Counted from the first letter of the stretch, positions 504 through 35,109 are shown. The stretch: DNA of 64,000 bases from an uncultured Verrucomicrobiae bacterium (GCA_963808535.1 CAWEGF010000025.1:213660-277659), one strand, 5' to 3'. Notes: generated from the sequence alone by a model not told the origin. Made by a program: numbers and translations.

Positions 504-1919
504 TCAGCCGTGGGGTTTCTTTTCCAATGTCGAGACGCGATTATCTTCGACTCGTCTAATAATGACTTGGGCCGGTCGAATATCCAAAACCTTGTAGGTG
601 TGGTCTGGATCGTTCGGAATCGAGAAAGTTTGATCCACTTCCACTCTGAGCGTCTGATCAGAATCAGGAAAAGCGAGGATCGCATATGCAGCATGCTCTT
701 GAGCCGGGACACCTTTGACTAAAGCGACATTCTGCCCCGACTTGGTGTTCCGCAACGTCACCACAGAGTCATCGACCGGATTGCCGTCTTTGTCTTCCGT
801 ACTGCGCACTTCCACATCAGTGACTTTATAGTCCAGACCTTTTAATTGATCGCCAACTGCCACGCTATATTCTTCCCCTTCGACCGGCCGGATCTTCGCT
901 TTCTTGCCACTGACTTCGCTCAGCATGATCGGCAAAAACTCTTGCCGGATTTCGACCACCGAAGCTGGCTTCGGTTGAGCAGCAGCGCCGGACCCCTTCG
1001 TGGAGCTACGTGCGCCGGTGCCTCGAGCATCGGGAGAGGCGCCCTTTGCTCCGCCCGGCAACAAGAGAAGATCCTGGTCTGACGTCGCTCCGGTCGGCTC
1101 GGTCGGCTGCCCCGGACTGCCAGACGCCACTTCTTTCGACGGAGAAGGGCCGCCCGGTGGGATCGGAGCCTTTTGCAAATGCTCCGCCACTTCCTGGTAA
1201 CCTTTCGCTTTGGCCAAGGCTCCGGCATTGGAGCCAGATTTGTCGGCCAGAGACGGGTCCGCGCCAGCCTTCAAGAAGAAAGAAACAAGATCCTTGTTCC
1301 CTTTGCTGGCCGCCAGCATCAAAGGAGTTCGTCCATCATCTGCGCGGGAATCAACCTCAGCGCCATTATCGAGCAAGATCTTCGCGATCTCCTGGTGTCC
1401 GGTCAGGGCGGCGATCAGCAGACCTCGATTGACTTCCTGACGTGAACGCGCCGCCAAAGCTTCAACGCAACCGGTGTTCCCTTGATAGACAGCTTTCATC
1501 AAAGCTGACCAGCCAGTTTGATCCTCCAGGTTCGGATCGGCATTCTTCTTCAAAAGGAGCTTAACAATCTCGGCCTGATTGTTCTCTGCCGCCAGCATAA
1601 GGGCAGTCACTCCCTGCTTACCCTGCGCGTCAACATTGGCCTTTTGTTCCAGCAACTTGTTCACCACATCGATTCGCCCGTTCTTCGCAGCAGCCATCAA
1701 GGCGGTGAACCCCGACACGCTTTGCACATTGCAATCGATGCCGGCATTGAGAAAGAGTTGAATCGCCTTTAGATCCCCTTTTTCCGCCGATTGAACAAAA
1801 TCGTCAGGGGTAAATTTTACATTAAGCTTTTCCAACTGCTCAATGGCTTGCTCCTTCGACTGGCCACATCCAAACAGGAATGCGGCCACCAAAATAGTGC
1901 ACCAGAAAGCCTTGCTCAT
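504..1919 (-). CDS. ankyrin-repeat lipoprotein with Pro/Gly/Ser-rich linker and C-terminal domain of unknown function
   Basis: 471-aa ORF. The N-terminus MSKAFWCTILVAAFLFGCGQ has a signal peptide plus lipobox Cys. There are multiple ankyrin-type repeats (GFTALMAAAKNGRIDVVNKLLEQKANVDAQ, GVTALMLAAENNQAEIVKLLLKKNADPN, GRTPLMLAASKGNKDLVSFFLKAGADPS). Its start overlaps the glgE stop by 4 bp. Confidence 0.75.
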   Translation of the reverse strand: MSKAFWCTILVAAFLFGCGQSKEQAIEQLEKLNVKFTPDDFVQSAEKGDLKAIQLFLNAGIDCNVQSVSGFTALMAAAKNGRIDVVNKLLEQKANVDAQGKQGVTALMLAAENNQAEIVKLLLKKNADPNLEDQTGWSALMKAVYQGNTGCVEALAARSRQEVNRGLLIAALTGHQEIAKILLDNGAEVDSRADDGRTPLMLAASKGNKDLVSFFLKAGADPSLADKSGSNAGALAKAKGYQEVAEHLQKAPIPPGGPSPSKEVASGSPGQPTEPTGATSDQDLLLLPGGAKGASPDARGTGARSSTKGSGAAAQPKPASVVEIRQEFLPIMLSEVSGKKAKIRPVEGEEYSVAVGDQLKGLDYKVTDVEVRSTEDKDGNPVDDSVVTLRNTKSGQNVALVKGVPAQEHAAYAILAFPDSDQTLRVEVDQTFSIPNDPDHTYKVLDIRPAQVIIRRVEDNRVSTLEKKPHG

Positions 1920-3916
1920 GCGAAGATCATCTGGGCTCCGTCCATTCCGATCATCCGGCGAACGCGAAAAACATGCGCCGGTCGGGAATGGGGGTCCAGG
2001 ATCACGAAATTACGACGCCCGCGCCAAGTGAATTTCTCGCCCGTCAACAGATCCTCCACCTGGTACGGATCAGCGCTTTCAATTTCAAAGCTTTCGATCG
2101 GAATATAGGCAAACCCGCTCTGGGAGTTGTACGGATCGACATTGACCAGAACCAGGATGACGTTGTCGAGCGCCTCGGTCGCTTTAGAGTAGAACAATAT
2201 TTGTTCGTTTTCGACGGTATGAAACCGGAGATTCTCGTACTCCCGCAAGGCTCGGTTATTATGCCGGATCGCATTGAGCTTGGTGATGTAATCTTTAATA
2301 TTGCCGGGGGCGTTCCAATCCCGTTCTTTGAATTGGTATTTTTCCGAATTGAGGTATTCCTCTCGGCCCGGGATTCCCACATTTTCACAGAGCTCGAACC
2401 CGCTATAGATTCCGTAAACCGTACTCAAGGTCGCCGCGAGAATGGCCCGGATCATAAATCCAGGCCGACCACTGTTCTGGAGGAAGAATGGCAGGATGTC
2501 CGGCGTATTAGGGAAAAAATTTCCGCGAAAGTAATATTTCATGTCGGTCTGAGTGAGTTCCGTCAGGTACTCCGTCAGCTCCCACTTACTGTTCCGCCAG
2601 GTGAAGTAGGTGTAAGACTGCGTGAATCCTCCCTTTGCCAGCGCCTTCATCATCTTGGGGCGCGTAAAGGCTTCAGCGAGAAAAATCACGTCCGGAAATT
2701 CCGCCTGAACCTCCGAGATCATCCATTCCCAAAAGGCATTCGGCTTGGTATGCGGATTGTCGACGCGGAAGATCCGAACCCCGTGCCGGGCCCAGAACAG
2801 AATCACCTCTTTCATCTCAATCCAGAGGTTTTTCCAGTCCGGATTGTAGAAGTTCAAAGGATAAACATCCTCGTACTTTTTGGGCGGATTCTCAGCGTAC
2901 TTGATCGATCCATCGGGACGATGGAAAAACCAATCCGGATGCTCCTTTACATAGGGATGATCCGGCGAACAATTGATGGCAAAATCCAGAGCGATCTCCA
3001 TCCCCCTGGCTCGCACTTCACCAACCAGCCAATCGAAATCGTCCAACGTACCAAGCTCCGGGTCCACGGCCTTGTGGCCGCCAAACTGGTTCCCGATGGC
3101 GTAAGGAACACCCGGATCACCCGGTTCGGAGGTTACGGAATTGTTCTTTCCTTTTCGCTTGGCGAACCCGATCGGGTGAATAGGGGGAAAATAGATCACA
3201 TCGAATCCCATCGCCTTGGCGTCGTCCACCCGGCCGAGGCAATCGCGAAACTTCGATCCAGTATTCGGCAGGCCTTCCGCGCACCTGGGAAAAAATTCGT
3301 ACCAAGCCGCAAAGAGCGCTTCCGAACGATCCACGGTGACTCGAAGATATGGTTTCAACTCCGTACTGAGTTCCAGATCCGGCCAAGCGCCCATTAATCC
3401 GGACAACTCAGGATTCTTAGCGAGTTGCGCACCGAAATGAACATCCGCATTCTTGAGCTGCTTAGCAAAGAGCGCCAACCGCTCCTTATCTTGTCTGCGC
3501 GTGGCTCGTTCCACCGCCCGTTGGACCAGGATTGAACCTTCTTCAATCTCAGTTCGGAGGTCCGTCTGACCGGCGGCATATTTCTTGGCATATTCGACCT
3601 GCCATGATTTGAAGTGATCTTCCCACGCCTCAATCGTGTACTCGTGCGGAGCATTTTCGATGAAATGACAAACGCCTTCCCAACGGTCATTCTCGGTCGG
3701 AGACATCGGTGTCCGATTCCAATCCGCACTCCCTGCTCGCCGCCACTTGAGAATCGCGGCAACTTGATCATGACCATCTTTGAAGATATCAGCCGAAACA
3801 TTCAGCGCTTGTCCGACAACCCTCTTGATAGGATAACGGCCTCCATCGAGGCAAGGTTCAACGTTTTCGATGACAACGGTTTGCATCCGTTCCAAATCAG
3901 TAGTTTTTGTAGTCAC
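1916..3916 (-). CDS. glgE: alpha-1,4-glucan:maltose-1-phosphate maltosyltransferase (GH13, GlgE family)
   Basis: 666-aa ORF. N-terminal VVIENVEPCLDGGRYPIKRVVGQ is typical of the GlgE N-domain. GH13 blocks are present: GFDVIYFPPIHPIG, GMEIALDFAINCSPDHPYV, RIFRVDNPHTKP, VIFLAEAFTRPKMM, FFPNTPDILP. Confidence 0.85.
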   Translation of the reverse strand: MTTKTTDLERMQTVVIENVEPCLDGGRYPIKRVVGQALNVSADIFKDGHDQVAAILKWRRAGSADWNRTPMSPTENDRWEGVCHFIENAPHEYTIEAWEDHFKSWQVEYAKKYAAGQTDLRTEIEEGSILVQRAVERATRRQDKERLALFAKQLKNADVHFGAQLAKNPELSGLMGAWPDLELSTELKPYLRVTVDRSEALFAAWYEFFPRCAEGLPNTGSKFRDCLGRVDDAKAMGFDVIYFPPIHPIGFAKRKGKNNSVTSEPGDPGVPYAIGNQFGGHKAVDPELGTLDDFDWLVGEVRARGMEIALDFAINCSPDHPYVKEHPDWFFHRPDGSIKYAENPPKKYEDVYPLNFYNPDWKNLWIEMKEVILFWARHGVRIFRVDNPHTKPNAFWEWMISEVQAEFPDVIFLAEAFTRPKMMKALAKGGFTQSYTYFTWRNSKWELTEYLTELTQTDMKYYFRGNFFPNTPDILPFFLQNSGRPGFMIRAILAATLSTVYGIYSGFELCENVGIPGREEYLNSEKYQFKERDWNAPGNIKDYITKLNAIRHNNRALREYENLRFHTVENEQILFYSKATEALDNVILVLVNVDPYNSQSGFAYIPIESFEIESADPYQVEDLLTGEKFTWRGRRNFVILDPHSRPAHVFRVRRMIGMDGAQMIFA

Positions 3917-5980: not shown

Positions 5981-7162
5981 ATGGGCACAAACGCGATAAG
6001 TACGATGAACGTCCCGCTACTGGCTGTTTTCTCTCTTTGCTTAGCAACCACCACCCTTTTTGGCGAAGATTCCGGCGGACCAGTGATCACGGTTCGGAAA
6101 GGGACCTCCCAGCAAGTTGAGATAAAACAGATCAGCGGACCGGCCGGCAGCACGGCGACCAGCGTCTTGCAAAACGATATCTTGCTTTCCGGTGAGCTCT
6201 CACTCGGTGACGCCGCTTCGGCTACGCTCACGGTCAGCGGCACCACTTCGCCAGATTCTTTCAGTGGCCTTGCGACCGACAAATCGGGTGGCGTGGTATT
6301 GAGAAAAGTTTACTCCGGAGAGACGCGTCACTCAGTTCACCAATTTACCAACGACTTGATAGAAACGGTGACTGGGCAAAAAGGGATCGCGCTCTCCAAA
6401 GTCGCTTTCGTGGCCGATCGCACCGGACACAAAGAGATTTATACCTGCGATTACGACGGAGCGCGCACCGTGCAACTCACCCACGACGGCGCGATCAGTG
6501 TAAGTCCGGCCTTATCCATCGACGGACGGAGGCTCGCCTATACCGGCTACCAAAGCGGCTATGCCGATATTTACCTGGTCGACTTGAGCAGCGGTTCGCG
6601 CATTCGCCTCATCAAATTCCCCGGAACCAACTCCGGGGCCGCCATCTCTCCAGACGGTACCCGGATCGCCTGCACGATGAGCAAAGATGGAAATCCGGCG
6701 ATCTATGTGGTCGGGATCAATGGCGATTCGCCTCGCCGCTTGACGCGAAGTCGCGGCGTAGAGTCCTCCCCGACCTGGTCGCCCAACGGATCCGAAATTA
6801 TTTACTCTTCGGATGAAAGAGGAGGGCCACAGCTTTACCGCATCTCGGCTGAGGGCGGCTCGGGCCGCTTACTCTCGACGGGGTTCGGCTACAACACCCA
6901 GCCGAATTGGTCGCCGGACGGTCGAAAAATTACTTTCAACGTCCGGAGTGGCGGCGGTTTTCAAGTCGCCATCCTTGATCTCGACTCCGGATCAACCCGC
7001 GTCGCGGTGTCCGACGGCGGGAATCCGGTTTGGGGTCCTGATTCGCGCCATATTATTTTTTCCAGGGGGACTGGGCTTTATTTATTTGATATTGTCACCG
7101 GGCGCGAGACACGCCTGGTAAGTGATCTCGGGCAAATCTCTGAGCCCACCTGGTCCCGTTGA
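5981..7162 (+). CDS. tolB: TolB-like periplasmic beta-propeller protein
   Basis: 393 aa with a signal-like N-terminus. It has repeated WD40-like beta-propeller units with the SP(D/N)G signature (ISPDGTRIA, WSPNGSEII, WSPDGRKITF, WGPDSRHIIF). pal lies immediately downstream. The alternative start at 6005 (MNVPLLAVF) is also possible. Confidence 0.8.
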   Translation: MGTNAISTMNVPLLAVFSLCLATTTLFGEDSGGPVITVRKGTSQQVEIKQISGPAGSTATSVLQNDILLSGELSLGDAASATLTVSGTTSPDSFSGLATDKSGGVVLRKVYSGETRHSVHQFTNDLIETVTGQKGIALSKVAFVADRTGHKEIYTCDYDGARTVQLTHDGAISVSPALSIDGRRLAYTGYQSGYADIYLVDLSSGSRIRLIKFPGTNSGAAISPDGTRIACTMSKDGNPAIYVVGINGDSPRRLTRSRGVESSPTWSPNGSEIIYSSDERGGPQLYRISAEGGSGRLLSTGFGYNTQPNWSPDGRKITFNVRSGGGFQVAILDLDSGSTRVAVSDGGNPVWGPDSRHIIFSRGTGLYLFDIVTGRETRLVSDLGQISEPTWSR

Positions 7163-7182
7163 AACCTCCAACTATTTCTCTG

Positions 7183-7677
7183 ATGAAAAAATTTCAAATT
7201 TTCTGCTGCTTGCTGACCCTGAGCCTGGCGGCCTGTCAAAAACAACAAAAGCAAGAATACACTGGAGTGGAAGGCGACAACGTCAACGGCACTCCGCTTC
7301 CTCCGCGCCAGGAAGGCGTCTCTTTTTTCAGCAACAACGTCACCAAGGGACAATTTCAGCCGATTTATTTCGCTTTCGACAGCTTTGAGATTGCCGCGGA
7401 CGAAGGAAATACATTGCGACAAATTGCTAGTTTTTTAAAGACCGCGCACAATAACATCATTCTGGCTGGGTTCACTGATGAAAGAGGGACGCCGGAATAC
7501 AATCGCGGGCTCGGGGAGCGTCGAGCCCAGGCCGCCCGCAATTTTCTACTTTCGCTCGGGGTTTCGGCTAGCCGCATCCAGACGGTCAGCTTTGGCCAGG
7601 AAATGCCTGCCAATCCGGGGCATGACGAATCCGCTTGGGCGAAAAATCGCCGGGTTGAAACTGGCGTGGTCCGTTGA
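7183..7677 (+). CDS. pal: peptidoglycan-associated lipoprotein (OmpA-family C-terminal domain)
   Basis: MKKFQIFCCLLTLSLAACQ carries a lipobox. OmpA-like motifs are present: FAFDSFEI, GFTDERGTPEYNRGLGERRAQAARNFL, NRRVE. The track start is TTG 7159; I prefer ATG 7183. Confidence 0.85.
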   Translation: MKKFQIFCCLLTLSLAACQKQQKQEYTGVEGDNVNGTPLPPRQEGVSFFSNNVTKGQFQPIYFAFDSFEIAADEGNTLRQIASFLKTAHNNIILAGFTDERGTPEYNRGLGERRAQAARNFLLSLGVSASRIQTVSFGQEMPANPGHDESAWAKNRRVETGVVR

Positions 7678-7757: not shown

Positions 7758-8345
7758 ATGGACGACCAGAACTTGCCCGACGATGAAACGTTGGTTCGCC
7801 AGACGCAGAACGGCGACACTCGGGCCTTCGACCTTCTCTGGCAAAAATACAGCCCGAGAATTTATTCGTTGATCTACAACATGACAGCGAACCATGAGGA
7901 TGCGAACGACCTCTTGCTGGAAGTCTTCGCCAAGGCCTACCGCTCGATCAATGGGTTTCGAGGCAAATCAAGTTTCTACACCTGGATCCACGCCATCGCT
8001 GTCAACATGACGATCAATTTCGTGAAGAAACGCGGCCGGCGTTTTCAGATGAGCCTGGACGACATGGACGCCAACGTGCAGAATGACAAGGATTTCATAG
8101 ATGCAACGGCTGCGAACACCCCGATACGCGAAGTTGATCTGGCAGAACTTCAGCAGAGATTGAACGAAGCTCTAATGAAGCTGTCTGTTGAGCATAGAGC
8201 AGTGGTGACAATGTTTGACATTCAAGGCATGGCCCATGCGGAGATTGCAAAAATCCTCGGTATCCCCGAGGCTACAGTGCGCTCTCGGCTATTCTATGCA
8301 CATCGGCAGTTGCAGAATTACCTCGAGGAGTTTAGAAAGAAATGA
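7758..8345 (+). CDS. ECF-type RNA polymerase sigma-70 family factor
   Basis: 195 aa. Region 2 (FDLLWQKYSPRIYSLIYNMTANHEDANDLLLEVF, FYTWIHAIAVN) and the region 4 HTH (AHAEIAKILGIPEATVRSRLFYAHRQL) are both present. Confidence 0.85.
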   Translation: MDDQNLPDDETLVRQTQNGDTRAFDLLWQKYSPRIYSLIYNMTANHEDANDLLLEVFAKAYRSINGFRGKSSFYTWIHAIAVNMTINFVKKRGRRFQMSLDDMDANVQNDKDFIDATAANTPIREVDLAELQQRLNEALMKLSVEHRAVVTMFDIQGMAHAEIAKILGIPEATVRSRLFYAHRQLQNYLEEFRKK

Positions 8346-8839
8346 TGCTCGACGAACAGCAGCTTCAGAAATTGCTTCGGCTCAAACGATTCGAGCAGCC
8401 ACCCCCAGGATATTTCGACCGGGCTTTAAACGAATTTCATCGACGTCAGCGCCAAGAGCTGTTGCGGCGTTCCGCAATCCAGATCTGGTTTGAGCGTCTC
8501 GTTTCGGGCCTTTGGAGTTTTCGTGTACCAACCTACGCTTACGGCGCGGCGTTTGGTGCCTTCCTGGTGGCTGCCACGATTGTTGGTTCGGGTGTGTGGG
8601 CTCCCTATACAGACACCGCGGAGCACGGTTCCGTCCTGGCCAGAGTGGCTTCCAGTCCTCCAGCGATGGAGCTTTCCTCCAACCGTTTGGCATTGAACGG
8701 AAATGTTGACTGGTCGAAATTCGATCGTACTTCCACCTCACCCCGTGTCGTTCCTGTTCTCGGACCCTCACAAAGCGCACTTCCTCGTTATGTCCTCGAC
8801 GGTAGGCCCGTCAGTTACGAAGCTTCGTTTAGCTTTTAA
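8342..8839 (+). CDS. putative anti-sigma factor / single-pass membrane protein
   Basis: 165 aa. It is translationally coupled (ATGA overlap) to the ECF sigma gene. It has a charged N-terminal region followed by one hydrophobic helix (YAYGAAFGAFLVAATIVGSGVW). No recognisable zinc-finger anti-sigma motif; the call rests on position only. Confidence 0.4.
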   Translation: MMLDEQQLQKLLRLKRFEQPPPGYFDRALNEFHRRQRQELLRRSAIQIWFERLVSGLWSFRVPTYAYGAAFGAFLVAATIVGSGVWAPYTDTAEHGSVLARVASSPPAMELSSNRLALNGNVDWSKFDRTSTSPRVVPVLGPSQSALPRYVLDGRPVSYEASFSF

Positions 8840-8844
8840 CCTTA

Positions 8845-9900
8845 ATGTTGGAAATCTTTGGTAGTAGGCGACTTCAGGGCATCCGCAGGGTAAAGGCTCT
8901 GAATGCTGGGATGGTCCTTTTGCTGCTTGGAGCAACCCGACTCCTTGCTCAGCAGGGCTTGAACTCTATTTCTTCCGAGGTCGCACGAGTCTTTGAGGGC
9001 GCTAAGAATGCCGTGGTGCGCATTAAGGCCGAAGACGAACATGGCAAACTGGCCGGCACGGGTTTTTTCATCGACCCCAACGGCACGATTATGACTGCCT
9101 ATGCCGTCGGAGGTGAATCTCGAGACATTATTGTCGAGTTCGGTGACAATCGTTATCCGGCCGAACGTCTCGTCGCCGATCCACGCAGCGGTATTGCGAT
9201 CTTGCGACTCACTGCGACGACGCCTTGGCTACCCATCGGAGATTCGGATCAACTGAAGATGGCTTCGCCAGTCGTAACCATCGGCTATCCGATGGATCTC
9301 TCCGTAACGCCAACGTTTGGAATGATCGGCGGGTTTGACCTTAAATATTTGAACCAGTTTTTTAGTACGACCTTGATCCGGGCGAATATCGCTGCGCAGC
9401 GAGGCGAAGCGGGCGCCCCGGTTCTGAATTTGAAGGGAGAAGTCGTAGGCATCCTGATTTTTCCGATCGACAACCGGACCGCCTGTTACGCCCTGCCAAT
9501 GAAAGCTGCGGAAAAAGTCCGAACGGATTTCGTGCGCTTCGGCGAAGTGAGGCCGGGATGGGTGGGCGTAAACGTGGTGGAGTCCGAAGAACCGACCCAC
9601 GAGTCATCGGTGGTAATTCAAAGTTTCGCTGAAGGTTCACCCGGCGCCGATTCGGGGTTGCAACCTGGCGACATCCTGGTCCGAATCGGATCAACGCTTA
9701 TTCATTCGCCACCGGACGTGCTGAACGCTTCATTTTTTTTGACGGCCGACGAAGATGTCCCAATCACCGTTCTGCGAGATGGAAAAGAGGTTTCGGTGAC
9801 CGTCACTGCCGTAGAACATCCGACCTATCTGCGGCAAAAACTGCCGCTCTTTGCTCCCGCTAACCGCGAAAACACCCAGCGCTTCCGGGACAGCGATTAG
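8845..9900 (+). CDS. HtrA/DegS-like trypsin-fold protein with PDZ domain; catalytic triad positions all substituted (predicted inactive)
   Basis: 351 aa. Family blocks are recognisable but altered. GTGFFIDPNGTIMTAYAV stands where TNxHV is expected (His to Ala). DPRSGIAILRL stands where D(L/I)A(V/L)L is expected (Asp to Gly). GEAGAPVLNLKGEVVGI stands where GNSGGPL is expected (Ser to Ala). The PDZ-like C-terminus is intact (GWVGVNVV...GLQPGDILVRIG). Confidence 0.75.
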   Translation: MLEIFGSRRLQGIRRVKALNAGMVLLLLGATRLLAQQGLNSISSEVARVFEGAKNAVVRIKAEDEHGKLAGTGFFIDPNGTIMTAYAVGGESRDIIVEFGDNRYPAERLVADPRSGIAILRLTATTPWLPIGDSDQLKMASPVVTIGYPMDLSVTPTFGMIGGFDLKYLNQFFSTTLIRANIAAQRGEAGAPVLNLKGEVVGILIFPIDNRTACYALPMKAAEKVRTDFVRFGEVRPGWVGVNVVESEEPTHESSVVIQSFAEGSPGADSGLQPGDILVRIGSTLIHSPPDVLNASFFLTADEDVPITVLRDGKEVSVTVTAVEHPTYLRQKLPLFAPANRENTQRFRDSD

Positions 9901-10100
9901 TAACTCGTCTGTTAGTTGGAGCCCGCACGTGGGCTGCAAAAGTGTCTGGATGCTGGCTCGTTTAACTGTCCGTTTTCTAGCGAAATCGTCTCGTCCTGAG
10001 CCATAAATCGGACGTATCTGGCTCTGGTTCTGGCAATTAGCCGCCAAGACGAAAGTTATTGGCTTTCTTTTTACCTCCGTTTACTGTGCCAAACTTACCG

Positions 10101-10406
10101 ATGCCGAAAAACGACTCAATGGGAACGGGAACGGAAATCTCGTTCGAGACGGCGATGGAAAGATTGGAGAAAATCGTCGAGGAAATGGAGTCTTCCAAAT
10201 TGCCGCTAGAAGATCTGCTGGTGCGATACGAGGAAGGCATCAAACTGGTGGGCGTTTGCAACCAACGACTCGCCGGCGCAGAAAGCCGCATCGAAACTCT
10301 AAGCCGACCCGCAAACGGAAGACCACCGACATCAGGTGCCGCGAACCCTCAAGATCCACTCAAGGACTCAAACAAAATCAAGAATGAAGAAATCAGACTC
10401 TTTTGA
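10101..10406 (+). CDS. xseB: exodeoxyribonuclease VII small subunit
   Basis: ISFETAMERLEKIVEEMESSKLPLEDLLVRYEEGIKLVGVCNQRLAGAESRIETL is the XseB helical hairpin signature. The track start is 10059; I prefer ATG 10101. The C-terminal tail overlaps the dxs start. Confidence 0.8.
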   Translation: MPKNDSMGTGTEISFETAMERLEKIVEEMESSKLPLEDLLVRYEEGIKLVGVCNQRLAGAESRIETLSRPANGRPPTSGAANPQDPLKDSNKIKNEEIRLF

Positions 10407-12312
10407 ATCGCCCGCCGAGGCACGGATATTGGACGCTATTAATTCGCCGTCGGACCTCAGGCGCCTCGAGGAAGGGAGATTACCTCAGCTTGCGCAGGAG
10501 ATTCGCGACGAGCTAATTACGGTTCTTTCCCAAGTCGGTGGGCACCTCGGGCCGAATCTTGGGGTCGTAGAGCTGACGATTGCTTTGCACCGGGTCTTTC
10601 ACACTCCAAAAGACAAACTGGTTTTCGATGTCAGCCATCAGGGATACGTCCACAAGCTCTTGACGGGACGACGAGGCCGTTTCAACACCATCCGCCAATA
10701 TCAGGGATTGAATGGATTTCTGCTCCGCACCGAAAGCGAGCACGACTGTTACGGGGCGGGTCACGCCGGAACTTCGCTGTCCGCGGCGCTCGGCATGGCG
10801 GTAGCCCGGGATCGAAGAGGTGGCCGGGAAAATGTGGTTGTGGTGGCCGGTGACGCCGCCTTTACGTGCGGGACGAGTTACGAAGCGCTGAACAACGTGG
10901 CCGACAACACCAAGCGGCTGATCGTGGTCCTGAATGATAACGAATGGTCGATTGCCAAAAACGTCGGCGCGATCGCCAACTATCTAAACAAGCTGGTGAC
11001 CAATGACGCCTACAGTCATTTACACGAAAAGGCCGCTAAGTTCGTCGAAATGATCGGTGGCCGATTCGCGCAGCAATTCGTTCACAAGGTCGAAGAAGGG
11101 GTAAAACACCTGGTTCTTCCCAGTGTGATCTTTGAGGATCTGGGACTTCGCTACTACGGGCCAATCAATGGACATGACATTCCGTTGCTAATTCAGACCT
11201 TTGAATTTCTGAAAAGACAGAACGAACCTGTCCTGCTCCACATTATCACCCAGAAGGGCAAAGGCTACGCCCCGGCGATCGCCAAGCCGGATAAATTTCA
11301 TGGCCTCGGAAAATTCAAGTTGGAAACTGGCGAAACGACCGCCACTACGACCCCAACTTATTCCGAGCTCTTCGGCCAAACCCTGGCAAAATTCGCTGAC
11401 CAGAACAACCGGATCATGGCGATCACCGCCGCGATGCCTTCGGGTACCGGACTGTTCCATTTCGCAGCCAAGCATCCCCAGCAATATTTCGACGTTGGGA
11501 TTGCCGAAGAACACGCTGCCCTATTCGCCAGCGGCTTGGCGACAGAAGGGTTTAAGCCGTTTCTGGCGATTTATTCTACCTTCATGCAGCGGGCCTACGA
11601 CATGCTGATCCACGACATCGCGCTGCAGAACCTGAATGTCGCTCTTTGTATGGACAGAGCCGGATTATCGGGGGATGACGGGCCGACTCACCATGGTCTT
11701 TTTGATATCGGTTACCTTCGACACATCCCAAACATGGTGCATATGCAACCAAAGGACGAAGAAGAGTTCGTCGACATGCTTTGGACGATGGTGAATTATC
11801 ACCAAGGCCCGATCGCCATTCGATACCCCCGTGGCGCCGGCACTGGAGCAAAACCAAAGCCACAGCCCAAATTGCTGGAGATTGGGAAAGCCGAAGTCGT
11901 CCAGCACGGGCGTCAGGTGGCATTAATTGGGCTTGGAAACATGTTTTCCCTCGCGCAGGAGGCCGCAAAAATTCTGGAGAGCGAAGGGATCTCAGTCGCC
12001 TTGATCAACCCGCGTTGGATTAAGCCCCTGGATGTCGGCACCCTGGAATTCTTTGCCCGGGGAGTTGAAGTGATCTGCACGTTCGAGGACCACGTCTTGC
12101 ACAATGGCTTTGGCTGCGCGGTTATGGAGCATCTCTCTGAAGCCAGGATCACCACGCCGGTCGTTCGGATCGGGTGGCCGGATCAATTCATCGAGCATGG
12201 CACGATCCCTGTCCTACGAAAGAAGCATGGCATTACCGCAGAGGCGGCGGTTGAGAAGGTCAAACCGTTTCTGAAAATCCCTCGCAAAGAGAGCCCGCGC
12301 ACCGCGGCTTAG
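10384..12312 (+). CDS. dxs: 1-deoxy-D-xylulose-5-phosphate synthase
   Basis: Motifs GGHLGPNLGVVELTIALH, FDVSHQGYVHKLLTGR, GHAGTSLSAALGMA, GDAAFTCGTSYEALNN, GIAEEHA and PTHHGLFD are present. The track start is GTG 10336; ATG 10384 (MKKSDSFESPAEARILDAINSP) fits the usual N-terminus. Confidence 0.9.
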   Translation: MKKSDSFESPAEARILDAINSPSDLRRLEEGRLPQLAQEIRDELITVLSQVGGHLGPNLGVVELTIALHRVFHTPKDKLVFDVSHQGYVHKLLTGRRGRFNTIRQYQGLNGFLLRTESEHDCYGAGHAGTSLSAALGMAVARDRRGGRENVVVVAGDAAFTCGTSYEALNNVADNTKRLIVVLNDNEWSIAKNVGAIANYLNKLVTNDAYSHLHEKAAKFVEMIGGRFAQQFVHKVEEGVKHLVLPSVIFEDLGLRYYGPINGHDIPLLIQTFEFLKRQNEPVLLHIITQKGKGYAPAIAKPDKFHGLGKFKLETGETTATTTPTYSELFGQTLAKFADQNNRIMAITAAMPSGTGLFHFAAKHPQQYFDVGIAEEHAALFASGLATEGFKPFLAIYSTFMQRAYDMLIHDIALQNLNVALCMDRAGLSGDDGPTHHGLFDIGYLRHIPNMVHMQPKDEEEFVDMLWTMVNYHQGPIAIRYPRGAGTGAKPKPQPKLLEIGKAEVVQHGRQVALIGLGNMFSLAQEAAKILESEGISVALINPRWIKPLDVGTLEFFARGVEVICTFEDHVLHNGFGCAVMEHLSEARITTPVVRIGWPDQFIEHGTIPVLRKKHGITAEAAVEKVKPFLKIPRKESPRTAA

Positions 12313-27465: not shown

Positions 27466-27985
27466 AATCCGCGCCCCGAAGGGGCTAGGAAGCATAGCCC
27501 CGCGTTGAATGGCGCTAATGATTTTGTTCCGAAAGGGCTTTAGGCGACAATCCTAGGGCTGAGGCCTTTGTTTTGTGCCCCGCAGGGGCTACAGAACTCA
27601 GCCCAGGGTTTCAACCCTGGGAATCGTCCACCAAACGCGACGCGCCCTGAAGGGGCGCCAGATCGCACGTCCTAACGAAGGGGGAAGTGGGGTCCGATGG
27701 TCCAATTGTCCCGCAAGTTCCGGTAGACTGGCGCACTCTGGCTTTTGCGCGGCAATAGGTGCGACACTTAATCGAATACCCGCATCTCTCGCCCCTTCAG
27801 GGCGAACCGTTTATTTTGGGGGGGTCCCAGGGTTAGAACCCTGGGCTGAGTTCTGTAGCCCCTGCGGGGCAGGCTCTTGGTTTTATATATAGAACCCATC
27901 CCAAATTCTCCTTATCTTCGCGCCATTCAGCCCGGGGTAAACCCTGGGCTAAGCTTTCATGCCCCTTCGGGGCGCAGATCGCCAC
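27466..27985. repeat. nested REP-like inverted-repeat cluster built from small hairpin modules
   Basis: Modules are GCCCCGAAGGGGC, TGCCCCGCAGGGGC, CCCAGGGTTTCAACCCTGGG and GCGCCCTGAAGGGGCGC. The 27576-27622 arm is mirrored at 27825-27871, with outer arms near 27470 and 27975. The 105-aa ORF inside looks spurious. Confidence 0.8.
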
Positions 27986-33243: not shown

Positions 33244-35109
33244 ATGCCCGCCCAGTCAATCAGCGAAAATCGCATCTTGCTCCAAACCTCGGAATTAAGC
33301 TGCTTCTTTGAACCCCAGACCGGCTTTCTACGCCAAGTGATGGTGGACGGTCACGAGGTCATTCGAGCGATCTACGGCGCCGTGCGCGATCAGAATTGGA
33401 ATACCGTGCCACCGGAGATTGTGGTTAGCCGGATCACTTCGAGCGACGAACATTTTCATCTGGAATTTCAGGTCAAATGTTCTTCCACCGGGATCGTTTT
33501 CAGCTGGAATGGAACGATCGAGGGAAGAGCGGGAACACTTTCCTTTGCCTTCGCTGGTCAAGCGGAATCCACTTTTAAGAAAAACCGAATTGGCCTTTGC
33601 CTTCTCCACCCGATTCAAGGATGCGCTGGCCAGCCATGCCGGGTTCGGGAAACGGGTCAAAGTTGGGTAGAATCAGAATTCCCTCTTTTCATTTCACCGC
33701 ATCAGCCATTCAAAAATCTGGGCGCCATTTCATGGAAGCCGACGCGAAATCTCGAAGCTACCGTGAGCTTTGCCGGCGATGTTTTCGAGACCGAGGATCA
33801 AAGGAACTGGACGGACGCTTCCTTTAAAACCTATTGCACGCCGCTCGATAAACCCTTTCCGGCAGAGATCACGGCGGGCACGCCGGTCCATCAGCAAATA
33901 ACGGTTGAACTTGATCGCACCACCCCTTCATCGGTTGTTGTGAGCGAACCCTCATCCGAAGTGATTTTGATCAGTGCGCAGGGAGAAAAATCGCTTCCCG
34001 CACTAGGTTTGGGCCTCGGCAACTACGGCGGAACGCTGAGCGAAACCGAGCGAGCCCGCCTGGCAGCCCTGAATTTGCATCACCTTCGCGTCGATATTTG
34101 CTTCGACGATCCGCGATGGAGTGAATCGCTGGAGAGGGCCACCACCGTGGCAAAAGAAATTGGCACCCGCCTGCAGCCGGCCCTTTTTTTCTCCGCACCG
34201 GAAGATCTTCGCGCTTTCAGCAGAACAGTCGACCATCAGATTTTGCAGAGCTGTCTTATTTTTCATAGCCAGGAATCATCCACTTCCGAACAATGGCTGG
34301 AGTTAGCCGCCGGGTTGTTATCTCAAACAGCGGTCGTAGGCGGGACTAACTCTAATTTTACCGAACTGAATCGCCACCGCCCAACCACCCGCTTTCCGAC
34401 CGCTTTCTCCCTCAATCCTCAAGTCCATGCCTTCGACGATCTGAGCTTGATCGAGAACCTGGAGGGTCAACCAGAGGTGATCCAGAGCGCCAGGCAGTTT
34501 TGCGGCACCGGTCTCTACGTTTCTCCAGTCACCCTTCGACCACGCTCCAATCCGGGCGCGGACACCCTGCCTCTTGAATCGTCCGGTCGTTTGCCTTTCT
34601 CCGTTGATCCTCGTCAGCGTACTCTTTTCGGGGCCACCTGGACGGTGGGTTCTCTTGCTCGACTACTTCCGGCATCCGGAATCGAGAGCCTCACCTACTA
34701 TGAAGCGATCGGGTGGAAAGGGGTGATGGAATCCGAGCAAGGCCATCCCCGTCCCCATCAATTCGGGTCCAGCCCCGGGGAGATTTTTCCCGTGTATCAC
34801 GTCTTCCGCGCTCTGGCTGAGGCCGAAGCACTGTTCCCGGTAACTAATCCGGTACCGCAAAAAATCGCCGTCGTCGGATTTCGTCAGAAGGGAACCGTCC
34901 ATGTTCTGCTCGCTAATCTGCAATCCGAAATCTCCATCGCCAAGCTACTTTTGCCGGCTGATCGGATCGCGGTCCAGATGTTAAGCGAAGACCATTTAGC
35001 GGCGGTTCGGCAAGAAAGATTGCCAGATCCGGAGATCCGACACCTGGTGGGCGGCGAAGCAGTTTTTGCTCTCCCGAGCTACGCGCTGGTGATCCTTCGA
35101 TGCATTTGA
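33244..35109 (+). CDS. hypothetical 621-aa cytoplasmic protein in a sugar-utilisation locus (function unknown)
   Basis: A long uninterrupted ORF with coding-like composition and no signal peptide. The antisense ORFs are short. I cannot assign a family by eye. Confidence 0.7.
   Translation: MPAQSISENRILLQTSELSCFFEPQTGFLRQVMVDGHEVIRAIYGAVRDQNWNTVPPEIVVSRITSSDEHFHLEFQVKCSSTGIVFSWNGTIEGRAGTLSFAFAGQAESTFKKNRIGLCLLHPIQGCAGQPCRVRETGQSWVESEFPLFISPHQPFKNLGAISWKPTRNLEATVSFAGDVFETEDQRNWTDASFKTYCTPLDKPFPAEITAGTPVHQQITVELDRTTPSSVVVSEPSSEVILISAQGEKSLPALGLGLGNYGGTLSETERARLAALNLHHLRVDICFDDPRWSESLERATTVAKEIGTRLQPALFFSAPEDLRAFSRTVDHQILQSCLIFHSQESSTSEQWLELAAGLLSQTAVVGGTNSNFTELNRHRPTTRFPTAFSLNPQVHAFDDLSLIENLEGQPEVIQSARQFCGTGLYVSPVTLRPRSNPGADTLPLESSGRLPFSVDPRQRTLFGATWTVGSLARLLPASGIESLTYYEAIGWKGVMESEQGHPRPHQFGSSPGEIFPVYHVFRALAEAEALFPVTNPVPQKIAVVGFRQKGTVHVLLANLQSEISIAKLLLPADRIAVQMLSEDHLAAVRQERLPDPEIRHLVGGEAVFALPSYALVILRCI

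Follow-up and report, generated by a model that had tools for sequence, protein, structure and literature searches.

An HtrA-like protein without a catalytic triad, encoded with an ECF sigma factor and a putative anti-sigma factor in Verrucomicrobiota

What does an HtrA-family protein contribute to a sigma factor operon once the residues needed for proteolysis are gone? Signaling through sigma-E and DegS is the textbook example of transmembrane signaling by regulated proteolysis. A 64,000-nucleotide stretch of DNA from an uncultured Verrucomicrobiae bacterium (GCA_963808535.1, CAWEGF010000025.1:213660-277659; the whole stretch is called the window below) raises this question, as it encodes on its plus strand an RpoE/AlgU-like extracytoplasmic function (ECF) sigma factor (positions 7758 to 8345, 195 aa), a putative single-pass anti-sigma factor (8342 to 8839, 165 aa), and an HtrA/DegS-like pseudoprotease made up of a signal peptide, a dead protease domain, and one PDZ domain (8845 to 9900, 351 aa). 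The coordinates of the open reading frames (ORFs) and the sequence between them bear out the near contiguity reported in the initial annotation: the stop codon of the sigma gene and the start of the middle gene share 4 bp (ATGA), and a 5-nt gap (CCTTA) separates the middle gene from the HtrA-like gene.

An HtrA fold without its triad

The scaffold of the third protein is that of the S1C peptidases. Pfam matches were obtained for Trypsin_2 (7.9e-18), PDZ_2 (4.4e-11), PDZ_6 (6.8e-07), and PDZ, with the PDZ matches spanning aa 241 to 321. An AlphaFold2 (AF2) model based on a 105-sequence alignment (pLDDT 90.6, pTM 0.83) contains the two-barrel chymotrypsin-like fold and a C-terminal PDZ domain, of which S1C members have at least one. 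Its strands place the protease-like double β-barrel at aa 57 to 232 (9013 to 9540), and the model together with the Pfam matches places the PDZ domain at aa 233 to 325 (9541 to 9819). Searched with Foldseek, the top matches were DegP, DegQ, MucD, DegS, AlgW, and HtrA of Mycobacterium tuberculosis (E values down to 5e-26, TM scores 0.6 to 0.8). At the N terminus, aa 1 to 35 (8845 to 8949, ...LLLLGATRLLA/QQ) probably form an export signal, either a Sec signal peptide or an anchor, judging from the short hydrophobic core and the LLA-Q site.

The positions of the triad were mapped in two ways, by HMMER against the solved chains of DegP, DegQ, and MucD and by MAFFT with an E. coli DegS sequence. 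TAYAV (aa 84 to 88), SGIAIL (aa 115 to 120), and GEAGAP (aa 187 to 192) align on TNxHV, TDxAVL, and GNSGGP, and the positions of DegS His96, Asp126, and Ser201 are occupied by Ala87 (codon 9103 to 9105), Gly116 (9190 to 9192), and Ala189 (9409 to 9411). The blocks fall exactly in register, and the substitution of His, Asp, and Ser by Ala, Gly, and Ala proposed in the initial annotation is correct. The His-Asp-Ser triad of S1C peptidases (TNxHV/DxAxL/GNSGGP) is absent from the window protein.

Curated family models give a matching picture. The protein failed to reach any named equivalog (DegS, DegP, DegQ, or HtrA); its best NCBIfam score was 137.5 bits against a cut-off of 416.2 (TIGR02037), the DegS models gave 89.8 against 422.95 and 83.9 against 408 bits, and the Do/DegS/HtrA models as a group were matched at only one-fifth to one-third of the cut-off. 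With 39.5 bits against a cut-off of 800, it is not a member of the MamO family either. Because the triad is missing and the scores lie far below every curated equivalog cut-off, the protein, as read from its sequence, should be filed as S1C by descent but as a non-peptidase homologue.

The PDZ domain offers a different picture. By alignment, the carboxylate-binding loop is retained as R-P-G-W-V-G-V (aa 236 to 242, 9550 to 9570), which pairs with G-Y-I-G-I in DegS and R-G-W-L-G-V in active HtrA proteins. R236, P237, G238, W239, and G241 are invariant within the close family, and G241 is one of just two invariant columns among the 105 diverse sequences.

Orthologues share the loss of the triad. 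All three triad residues are absent from each of the 120 closest database homologues (56 to 100% identity). A scan of one genome per species yielded 80 loci, all from Verrucomicrobiota (Chthoniobacterales, "Spartobacteria", Chthoniobacteraceae, Terrimicrobiaceae, and one metagenome-assembled genome [MAG] labeled Akkermansiaceae), whose HtrA-like proteins are 45 to 94% identical to that of the window. The triad is missing from every one of them; neither His nor Asp occurs at its column in any locus, and Ser alone is kept in 5 of the 80. Because the 120 closest homologues and the 80 genome loci are likewise without the triad, its loss in the window protein is neither a chance event nor an assembly artifact.

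Beyond these close relatives, a profile search was run against 1.84 billion cluster representatives (50% identity), and the best 150 were examined. All three columns could be aligned in 117 of these. The triad is missing from 101 of the 117, and in 89 not one of its residues remains. The other 16 do have a triad, and the first of them comes only at rank 70; they are longer (446 to 659 aa), and most match as two stretches, as would two-PDZ proteins of the DegP/DegQ type. Residues at the triad columns vary (S/T/A/N/D/E/G for His, G/N for Asp, and G/I/S/A/V/Q for Ser). A further search seeded with a distant member added 117 homologues from Puniceicoccales and Oceanipulchritudo, none with a triad and typically with Ser, Asn, and Gly at the three positions.

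Could the protein still cleave by means of other catalytic residues? Some features would suit a non-canonical protease: the L1-loop scaffold (G187, G190, and P192) is preserved among the 105 diverse members, and Ser stands at the nucleophile column in the five Chthoniobacterales loci just mentioned, three of them with a His nearby. Against this, the protease domain has no conserved Ser, His, Cys, Lys, or Thr column among the same 105 sequences, the triad columns vary freely, and the window protein itself has Ala, Gly, and Ala. Alternative catalytic residues were rejected for want of a conserved nucleophile column, and we regard continued proteolysis as very improbable. The Ser-keeping loci (L033, L049, L063, L066, and L068) read GESGAP; in three of them (L063, L066, and L068) the His block is THYSV, which sets a His two residues ahead of the canonical position, and the Asp column holds Gly. 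They are possibly intermediate or relic states.

Decay of the gene was also considered and rejected, as the ratio of nonsynonymous to synonymous substitution (dN/dS) against close orthologues is 0.02 to 0.03 for the dead protease domain (0.036 to 0.044 for the PDZ domain) and the gene is conserved throughout the phylum. Overall, we conclude that the HtrA-like protein has kept its fold and lost its catalytic chemistry, and has probably kept its substrate-binding groove. In two MAG loci (L018:6001-7057 and L030:6001-7057), the HtrA-like ORF is broken into two overlapping pieces, and the middle gene is split as well in L018; these are either indel errors of assembly or real pseudogenes.

The arrangement of the three genes is also constant. 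The order sigma factor, membrane protein, dead HtrA on one strand was found in 76 of 76 Chthoniobacterales loci with enough upstream DNA (of 80) and in 7 of 7 distant dead-HtrA loci (29 to 40% identical) from Verrucomicrobiales, Puniceicoccales, and other Verrucomicrobiota. Altogether 88 related loci were collected, and the order is kept in all 83 that extend far enough upstream. The flanks change between clades: the tolB-pal and xseB-dxs neighbors occur only in the window's own clade, and mostly unrelated genes stand elsewhere. The three genes are an ancient unit of the phylum Verrucomicrobiota, and the dead homologue is hard-wired to the sigma/membrane-protein pair, as had been suggested from the window alone. 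One of the seven distant loci belongs to a cultured isolate, Oceanipulchritudo coccoides CK1056. One 626-aa gene call from a public metagenome (P0265) was entertained as a natural fusion of the anti-sigma factor and HtrA and rejected, as its middle is low-complexity read-through; it is most likely a frameshifted call across two genes.

The partner genes and a conserved aromatic C terminus

Identity of the first gene was established by Pfam (Sigma70_r2, 2e-15; Sigma70_r4_2, 4e-13; Sigma70_ECF, 5e-09). With sigma-2 and sigma-4 domains only in 195 aa, the protein is a group 4 (ECF) sigma factor, and it scored 104.9 bits with the NCBIfam model of the sigma70-ECF superfamily (TIGR02937, cut-off 42.9). 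It is not an RpoE equivalog, since it reached 134.5 bits against a cut-off of 236.15 for TIGR02939 (RpoE_Sigma70), which is still its nearest NCBIfam model. Among solved structures, it is closest to AlgU (6in7_B, 2e-30) and to sigma-E of E. coli (1or7, 2.4e-28). Sequence identity is 66 to 96% across 76 Chthoniobacterales loci and 43 to 65% in distant orders, with a dN/dS of 0.03 to 0.045.

The middle gene is less easily named. Its product has none of the anti-sigma domains zf-HC2, RseA_N, or RskA and no HxxxCxxC motif, and a search of PDB sequences with the family profile gave only chance membrane-helix matches; all 2736 homologues are called "hypothetical" in the databases. In each of the 83 loci that reach far enough upstream, the gene directly follows the sigma gene, to which it is translationally coupled. 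AF2 predicts helices at aa 5 to 16 and 24 to 58, a membrane helix at aa 64 to 82, and no structure from aa 83 to 165 (pLDDT below 50). The sequence places the transmembrane helix at aa 64 to 87 (8531 to 8602), in the hydrophobic stretch TYAYGAAFGAFLVAATIVGSGVWA, whose N-terminal side is rich in Arg and Lys, and the protein is accordingly predicted to have its N terminus in the cytoplasm and its C terminus outside. A motif on the two cytoplasmic helices, LLRLKRxEQPPPGYF..L.EFHRRQRxELLR (aa 8 to 45, 8363 to 8476), emerged from an alignment of 78 loci and is recognizable in the distant loci L081 to L088; it is the presumed sigma-binding region. The periplasmic part varies in length and sequence in the same alignment and is predicted to be a disordered linker, and overall identity across Chthoniobacterales loci is 31 to 90%.

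One distant homologue is informative. The middle protein of locus L082 (4442 to 5023) aligns end to end with that of the window (BLASTP, 7e-13) and bears an N-terminal Pfam zf-HC2 (HxxxCxxC) zinc finger ahead of the shared LKRxE motif (32.3 bits, cut-off 22.2). This zinc finger may be either an ancestral remnant or a secondary gain. Based on the 4-bp overlap with the sigma gene, the N-in single-pass topology typical of membrane anti-sigma factors encoded downstream of their sigma genes, the genomic context, and the zf-HC2 domain of L082, it is reasonable to read the middle protein as the anti-sigma factor. Of the sigma/anti-sigma pair named in the initial annotation, the ECF sigma factor therefore stands on profile matches, and the anti-sigma factor on context and a single homologue. 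In three Puniceicoccales-type loci, a gene for an Rce1-like/CPBP intramembrane protease (PF02517) lies divergently just 5' of the sigma gene (L081:1209-1871, L085:1322-1930, and L088:950-1576, all on the minus strand), with a polyprenyl synthase gene in between in L081 and L088. The anti-sigma factor might be a substrate of this protease.

The best-conserved part of the middle protein is its very end, ALPRYVLDGRPVSYEASFSF-COOH (aa 146 to 165, 8777 to 8836), for which the 78-locus alignment gives the consensus PRY[VI][LIM]DxRP[VA]SYExx[F/x]SF. Among 86 loci, the middle protein ends in Phe at 81, in Tyr at 4, and in Leu at 1, so that 85 have an aromatic last residue. This holds even where no alignment of the remaining periplasmic part is possible. 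The background frequency of terminal Phe, taken from 884 other ORFs (200 aa or longer) at these loci, is 2.3%. Of 120 database homologues of the middle protein, 118 end in Phe. The last residue is under selection, and therefore the free C terminus appears to be read.

For aromatic C termini in the periplasm, PDZ domains are the classic readers. The PDZ domain of DegS binds the YxF end of unassembled outer-membrane proteins (OMPs), and that of AlgW binds the WVF end of MucE or OMPs (PMC8545111). In sequence, the tail resembles the OMP C termini bound by such DegS-type domains, and we propose that it is a ligand for the PDZ domain or cleft of the dead HtrA that mimics an OMP C terminus. Another partner might read the tail instead, its pairing with the dead HtrA being coincidental; the β-barrel assembly machinery (BAM), a C-terminal processing protease, or the PDZ domain of an RseP-type site-2 protease (S2P) would each be conceivable. 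The Y-x-x-x-F-x-F alternation and terminal aromatic residue also resemble the OMP β-signal, and the tail might then report an idle or jammed BAM as a mimic of that signal. Moreover, PDZ domains are used by Prc and RseP as well (for RseP, PMC7728848). We consider such a coincidence quite improbable, as tail and dead HtrA are inherited together in 86 of 86 loci across orders and the PDZ domain encoded 5 nt downstream is the nearest both in space and in genetic linkage.

Possible regulation and relation to known systems

The reading that we favor, tentatively and at slightly less than even confidence, is that the dead HtrA binds the anti-sigma tail as a non-cutting guard and is displaced from it by OMP C termini. 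The cytoplasmic helices of the anti-sigma factor would hold the sigma factor at the membrane. On the periplasmic side, the dead HtrA would bind the tail, with the terminal x-S-F-COOH in the carboxylate-binding pocket of the PDZ domain, as OMP YxF peptides are bound in DegS and AlgW; the upstream RYV(L/I)D strand may lie along the substrate cleft, which is preserved although inert. In this bound state, the pseudoprotease would serve as a guard in the manner of RseB/MucB, keeping periplasmic or intramembrane proteases away from the anti-sigma factor. A failure of outer-membrane assembly would leave unassembled OMPs, whose aromatic C termini are similar, to compete for the PDZ domain and free the tail. 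The anti-sigma factor would then be degraded by other proteases, for example an S2P/RseP-type enzyme, setting the sigma factor free. The sensing logic of DegS, in which the PDZ domain reads OMP C termini, would be kept, and the output would be release of a ligand rather than a cut.

Several points weigh against the guard model. The middle protein of the window is recognized by neither Pfam nor NCBIfam, nor by the family profile against all PDB sequences, and a zf-HC2 zinc finger is present in only 1 of 86 middle proteins (L082). Compared with active HtrA proteins, the conserved Arg before the PDZ loop stands at a distance from the aromatic residue that is greater by one residue, and the geometry of the pocket may differ from theirs. 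A change in the PDZ loop (RPGW to RHGW) that is paired with a change at tail position -2 (Ser to Arg/Lys) belongs essentially to one clade; this co-variation is confounded by phylogeny and was not counted as evidence. The aromatic C terminus could serve another PDZ protease (Prc/CtpA or RseP) or the BAM machinery. Comparison of the upstream regions of 72 loci showed conservation within close clades only and no defensible ECF-type -35/-10 promoter common to them. Finally, the sign of regulation, guard or activator, is not fixed by the data.

Activation is the subject of a second proposal. HtrA proteins oligomerize, which makes mixed oligomers of dead and active members conceivable. The dead HtrA, on binding the anti-sigma tail or OMP peptides, might deliver the anti-sigma factor to an active protease whose gene lies elsewhere, or activate that protease allosterically, and so be a positive regulator. 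A precedent exists in the magnetosome, where the HtrA pseudoprotease MamO activates proteolysis that depends on its active paralogue MamE (PMC4794232), and the evidence from the tail and the PDZ domain would serve an adaptor equally well. No active HtrA paralogue is encoded in the window or consistently linked to the module, and the data do not separate activation from protection; we hold a role as adaptor or activator to be improbable. A third triad-less HtrA fold, PflC of the Campylobacter flagellar motor, is a structural scaffold (PMC12222027). MamO and PflC are like the window protein in their non-catalytic roles, MamO by analogy only, but they belong to independent lineages, act in other processes of the cell, and have no sigma/anti-sigma pair linked to them.

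HtrA genes beside sigma and anti-sigma genes are themselves familiar. They occur in algU-mucABCD of Pseudomonas aeruginosa and in the mycobacterial sigE-rseA-htrA cluster, which in M. tuberculosis (Rv1221-Rv1223) sets an ECF sigma factor, an anti-sigma factor, and an HtrA-family gene side by side. An HtrA gene also lies within the sigma-E operon of Xanthomonas campestris and Stenotrophomonas maltophilia (rpoE-rseA-mucD; PMC4229105), and the Verrucomicrobiota module shares with that operon an RpoE/AlgU-type ECF sigma factor, a single-pass anti-sigma factor, and an HtrA-family gene in this order on one strand. AlgU is the best solved relative of the window sigma factor, and the HtrA-like protein has MucD among its best matches in both structure and sequence.

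These likenesses suggest that the dead HtrA might instead be a MucD-like feedback chaperone, a co-transcribed member of the regulon that holds unfolded OMPs and damps the signal while another protein reads the anti-sigma tail. The retained cleft scaffold and PDZ pocket would suit OMP binding, and HtrA proteins are known to combine chaperone and protease activities (PMC8671199). We nevertheless consider a holdase unlikely. It leaves unexplained both the invariant OMP-like C terminus of the anti-sigma factor in exactly those genomes that bear the dead HtrA and the loss of catalysis throughout the clade, given that quality control of the MucD type relies on degradation. MucD, an active protease of the DegP type, has an intact triad and, like DegP, two PDZ domains, whereas the window protein has no triad, one PDZ domain, and the size of DegS. 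In contrast to rpoE-rseA-mucD and algU-mucABCD, the Verrucomicrobiota module has no RseB/MucB gene, and its anti-sigma factor is unrelated in sequence to RseA/MucA and ends in a conserved aromatic C terminus.

In architecture, the window protein is closest to DegS and AlgW: about 350 aa, an N-terminal export or anchor segment, one protease-fold domain, and one PDZ domain, with matching folds. The PDZ ligands of these proteases, YxF and WVF C termini (PMC8545111), are the kind of C terminus found on the window anti-sigma factor. Unlike the window protein, which is incapable of a Ser-His-Asp mechanism, DegS and AlgW cleave RseA and MucA, and both are encoded outside the sigma operon; in the module, the aromatic C terminus is on the anti-sigma factor itself and not only on OMPs. 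The guard function proposed above is modeled on RseB and MucB, periplasmic proteins that protect RseA and MucA until a stress ligand displaces them (PMC8545111). The likeness lies in the proposed function only, as the dead HtrA is related to them neither in sequence nor in fold, and RseB senses lipopolysaccharide intermediates rather than OMP C termini. HtrA structures of M. tuberculosis are among the fold matches of the window protein, but Rv1223, an essential HtrA-like protein, retains its catalytic serine, and the mycobacterial RseA is cytoplasmic and degraded by ClpC1P2 after phosphorylation (PMC3062566).

A full-text literature search found no account of this module, nor of any ECF sigma factor that has a dead HtrA linked to it, and the main text of the ECF reclassification paper (PMC7826278) mentions neither HtrA, PDZ, trypsin, nor Verrucomicrobia. 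An HtrA gene in a sigma-E operon and dead HtrA proteins are each already known; the novelty is their combination, in which a dead, single-PDZ, DegS-sized homologue accompanies a sigma/anti-sigma pair across a phylum and the anti-sigma factor has an OMP-like C terminus, and of which we found no description. The PDZ-based sensor, decoy, or adaptor acting without cleavage that was first envisaged for this locus has held up as to its dead state and its hard-wiring, and has gained support from the OMP-like tail; its role is still a matter of interpretation.

Genomic surroundings and implications

Within the window, a TolB-like gene (PD40 repeats) and a Pal-like gene (OmpA family) lie directly upstream of the module (5981 to 7677, plus strand), an arrangement shared by about 29 loci of the window's own clade. 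Two Terrimicrobiaceae-type loci (L077:1544-3321 and L080:6946-8768) have tolB-pal directly downstream of the HtrA-like gene. The link between the Tol-Pal envelope system and the module is recurrent but rearranged. On the 3' side stand xseB (10059 to 10406) and dxs (10336 to 12312), both on the plus strand; their longest ORFs share 71 nt, and the true start of dxs is probably further downstream than the first GTG. A sigma-70 scan 5' of the sigma gene found no promoter, and no clear terminator follows the HtrA-like gene, the stem at 9831 to 9847 falling within its ORF.

Elsewhere in the 64 kb, no second HtrA or sigma paralogue and no tRNA gene was found. The sole Rfam match is an Acido-Lenti-1 small RNA motif at 27576 to 27621 (minus strand; 42.3 bits, gathering score 37). 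A 471-aa protein consisting mostly of ankyrin repeats (504 to 1919, minus strand; Ank_2, 6.7e-55) is encoded next to a GlgE-type maltosyltransferase gene (1916 to 3916), and a 621-aa ORF at 33244 to 35109 (plus strand) has no Pfam match at an E value of 1e-6 or below.

Hundreds of dead-HtrA proteins are named "serine protease Do" or "S1C family serine protease" in public databases, and for this clade the serine-protease annotation is almost certainly wrong. The module keeps the sensor fold, the PDZ domain, and the sigma/anti-sigma pair, all under strong selection throughout the phylum; the catalytic residues of the sensor are gone, and an OMP-like C terminus is present on the anti-sigma factor. 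A wider proposal, which we find doubtful as it stands, is that Verrucomicrobiota run an RpoE-type stress response without a DegS-like site-1 cut, in which the anti-sigma factor has a built-in OMP-mimic tail bound by the PDZ domain and inert cleft of the dead DegS homologue, unassembled OMPs signal solely by displacing that tail in competition, and the whole was fixed at the base of the phylum. Experiments are feasible because the module is present in the cultured O. coccoides CK1056. If the interaction between tail and PDZ domain is true, the module would illustrate a route from a protease-based to a binding-based sensor and would provide a simple, testable competition mechanism for sensing OMP assembly.

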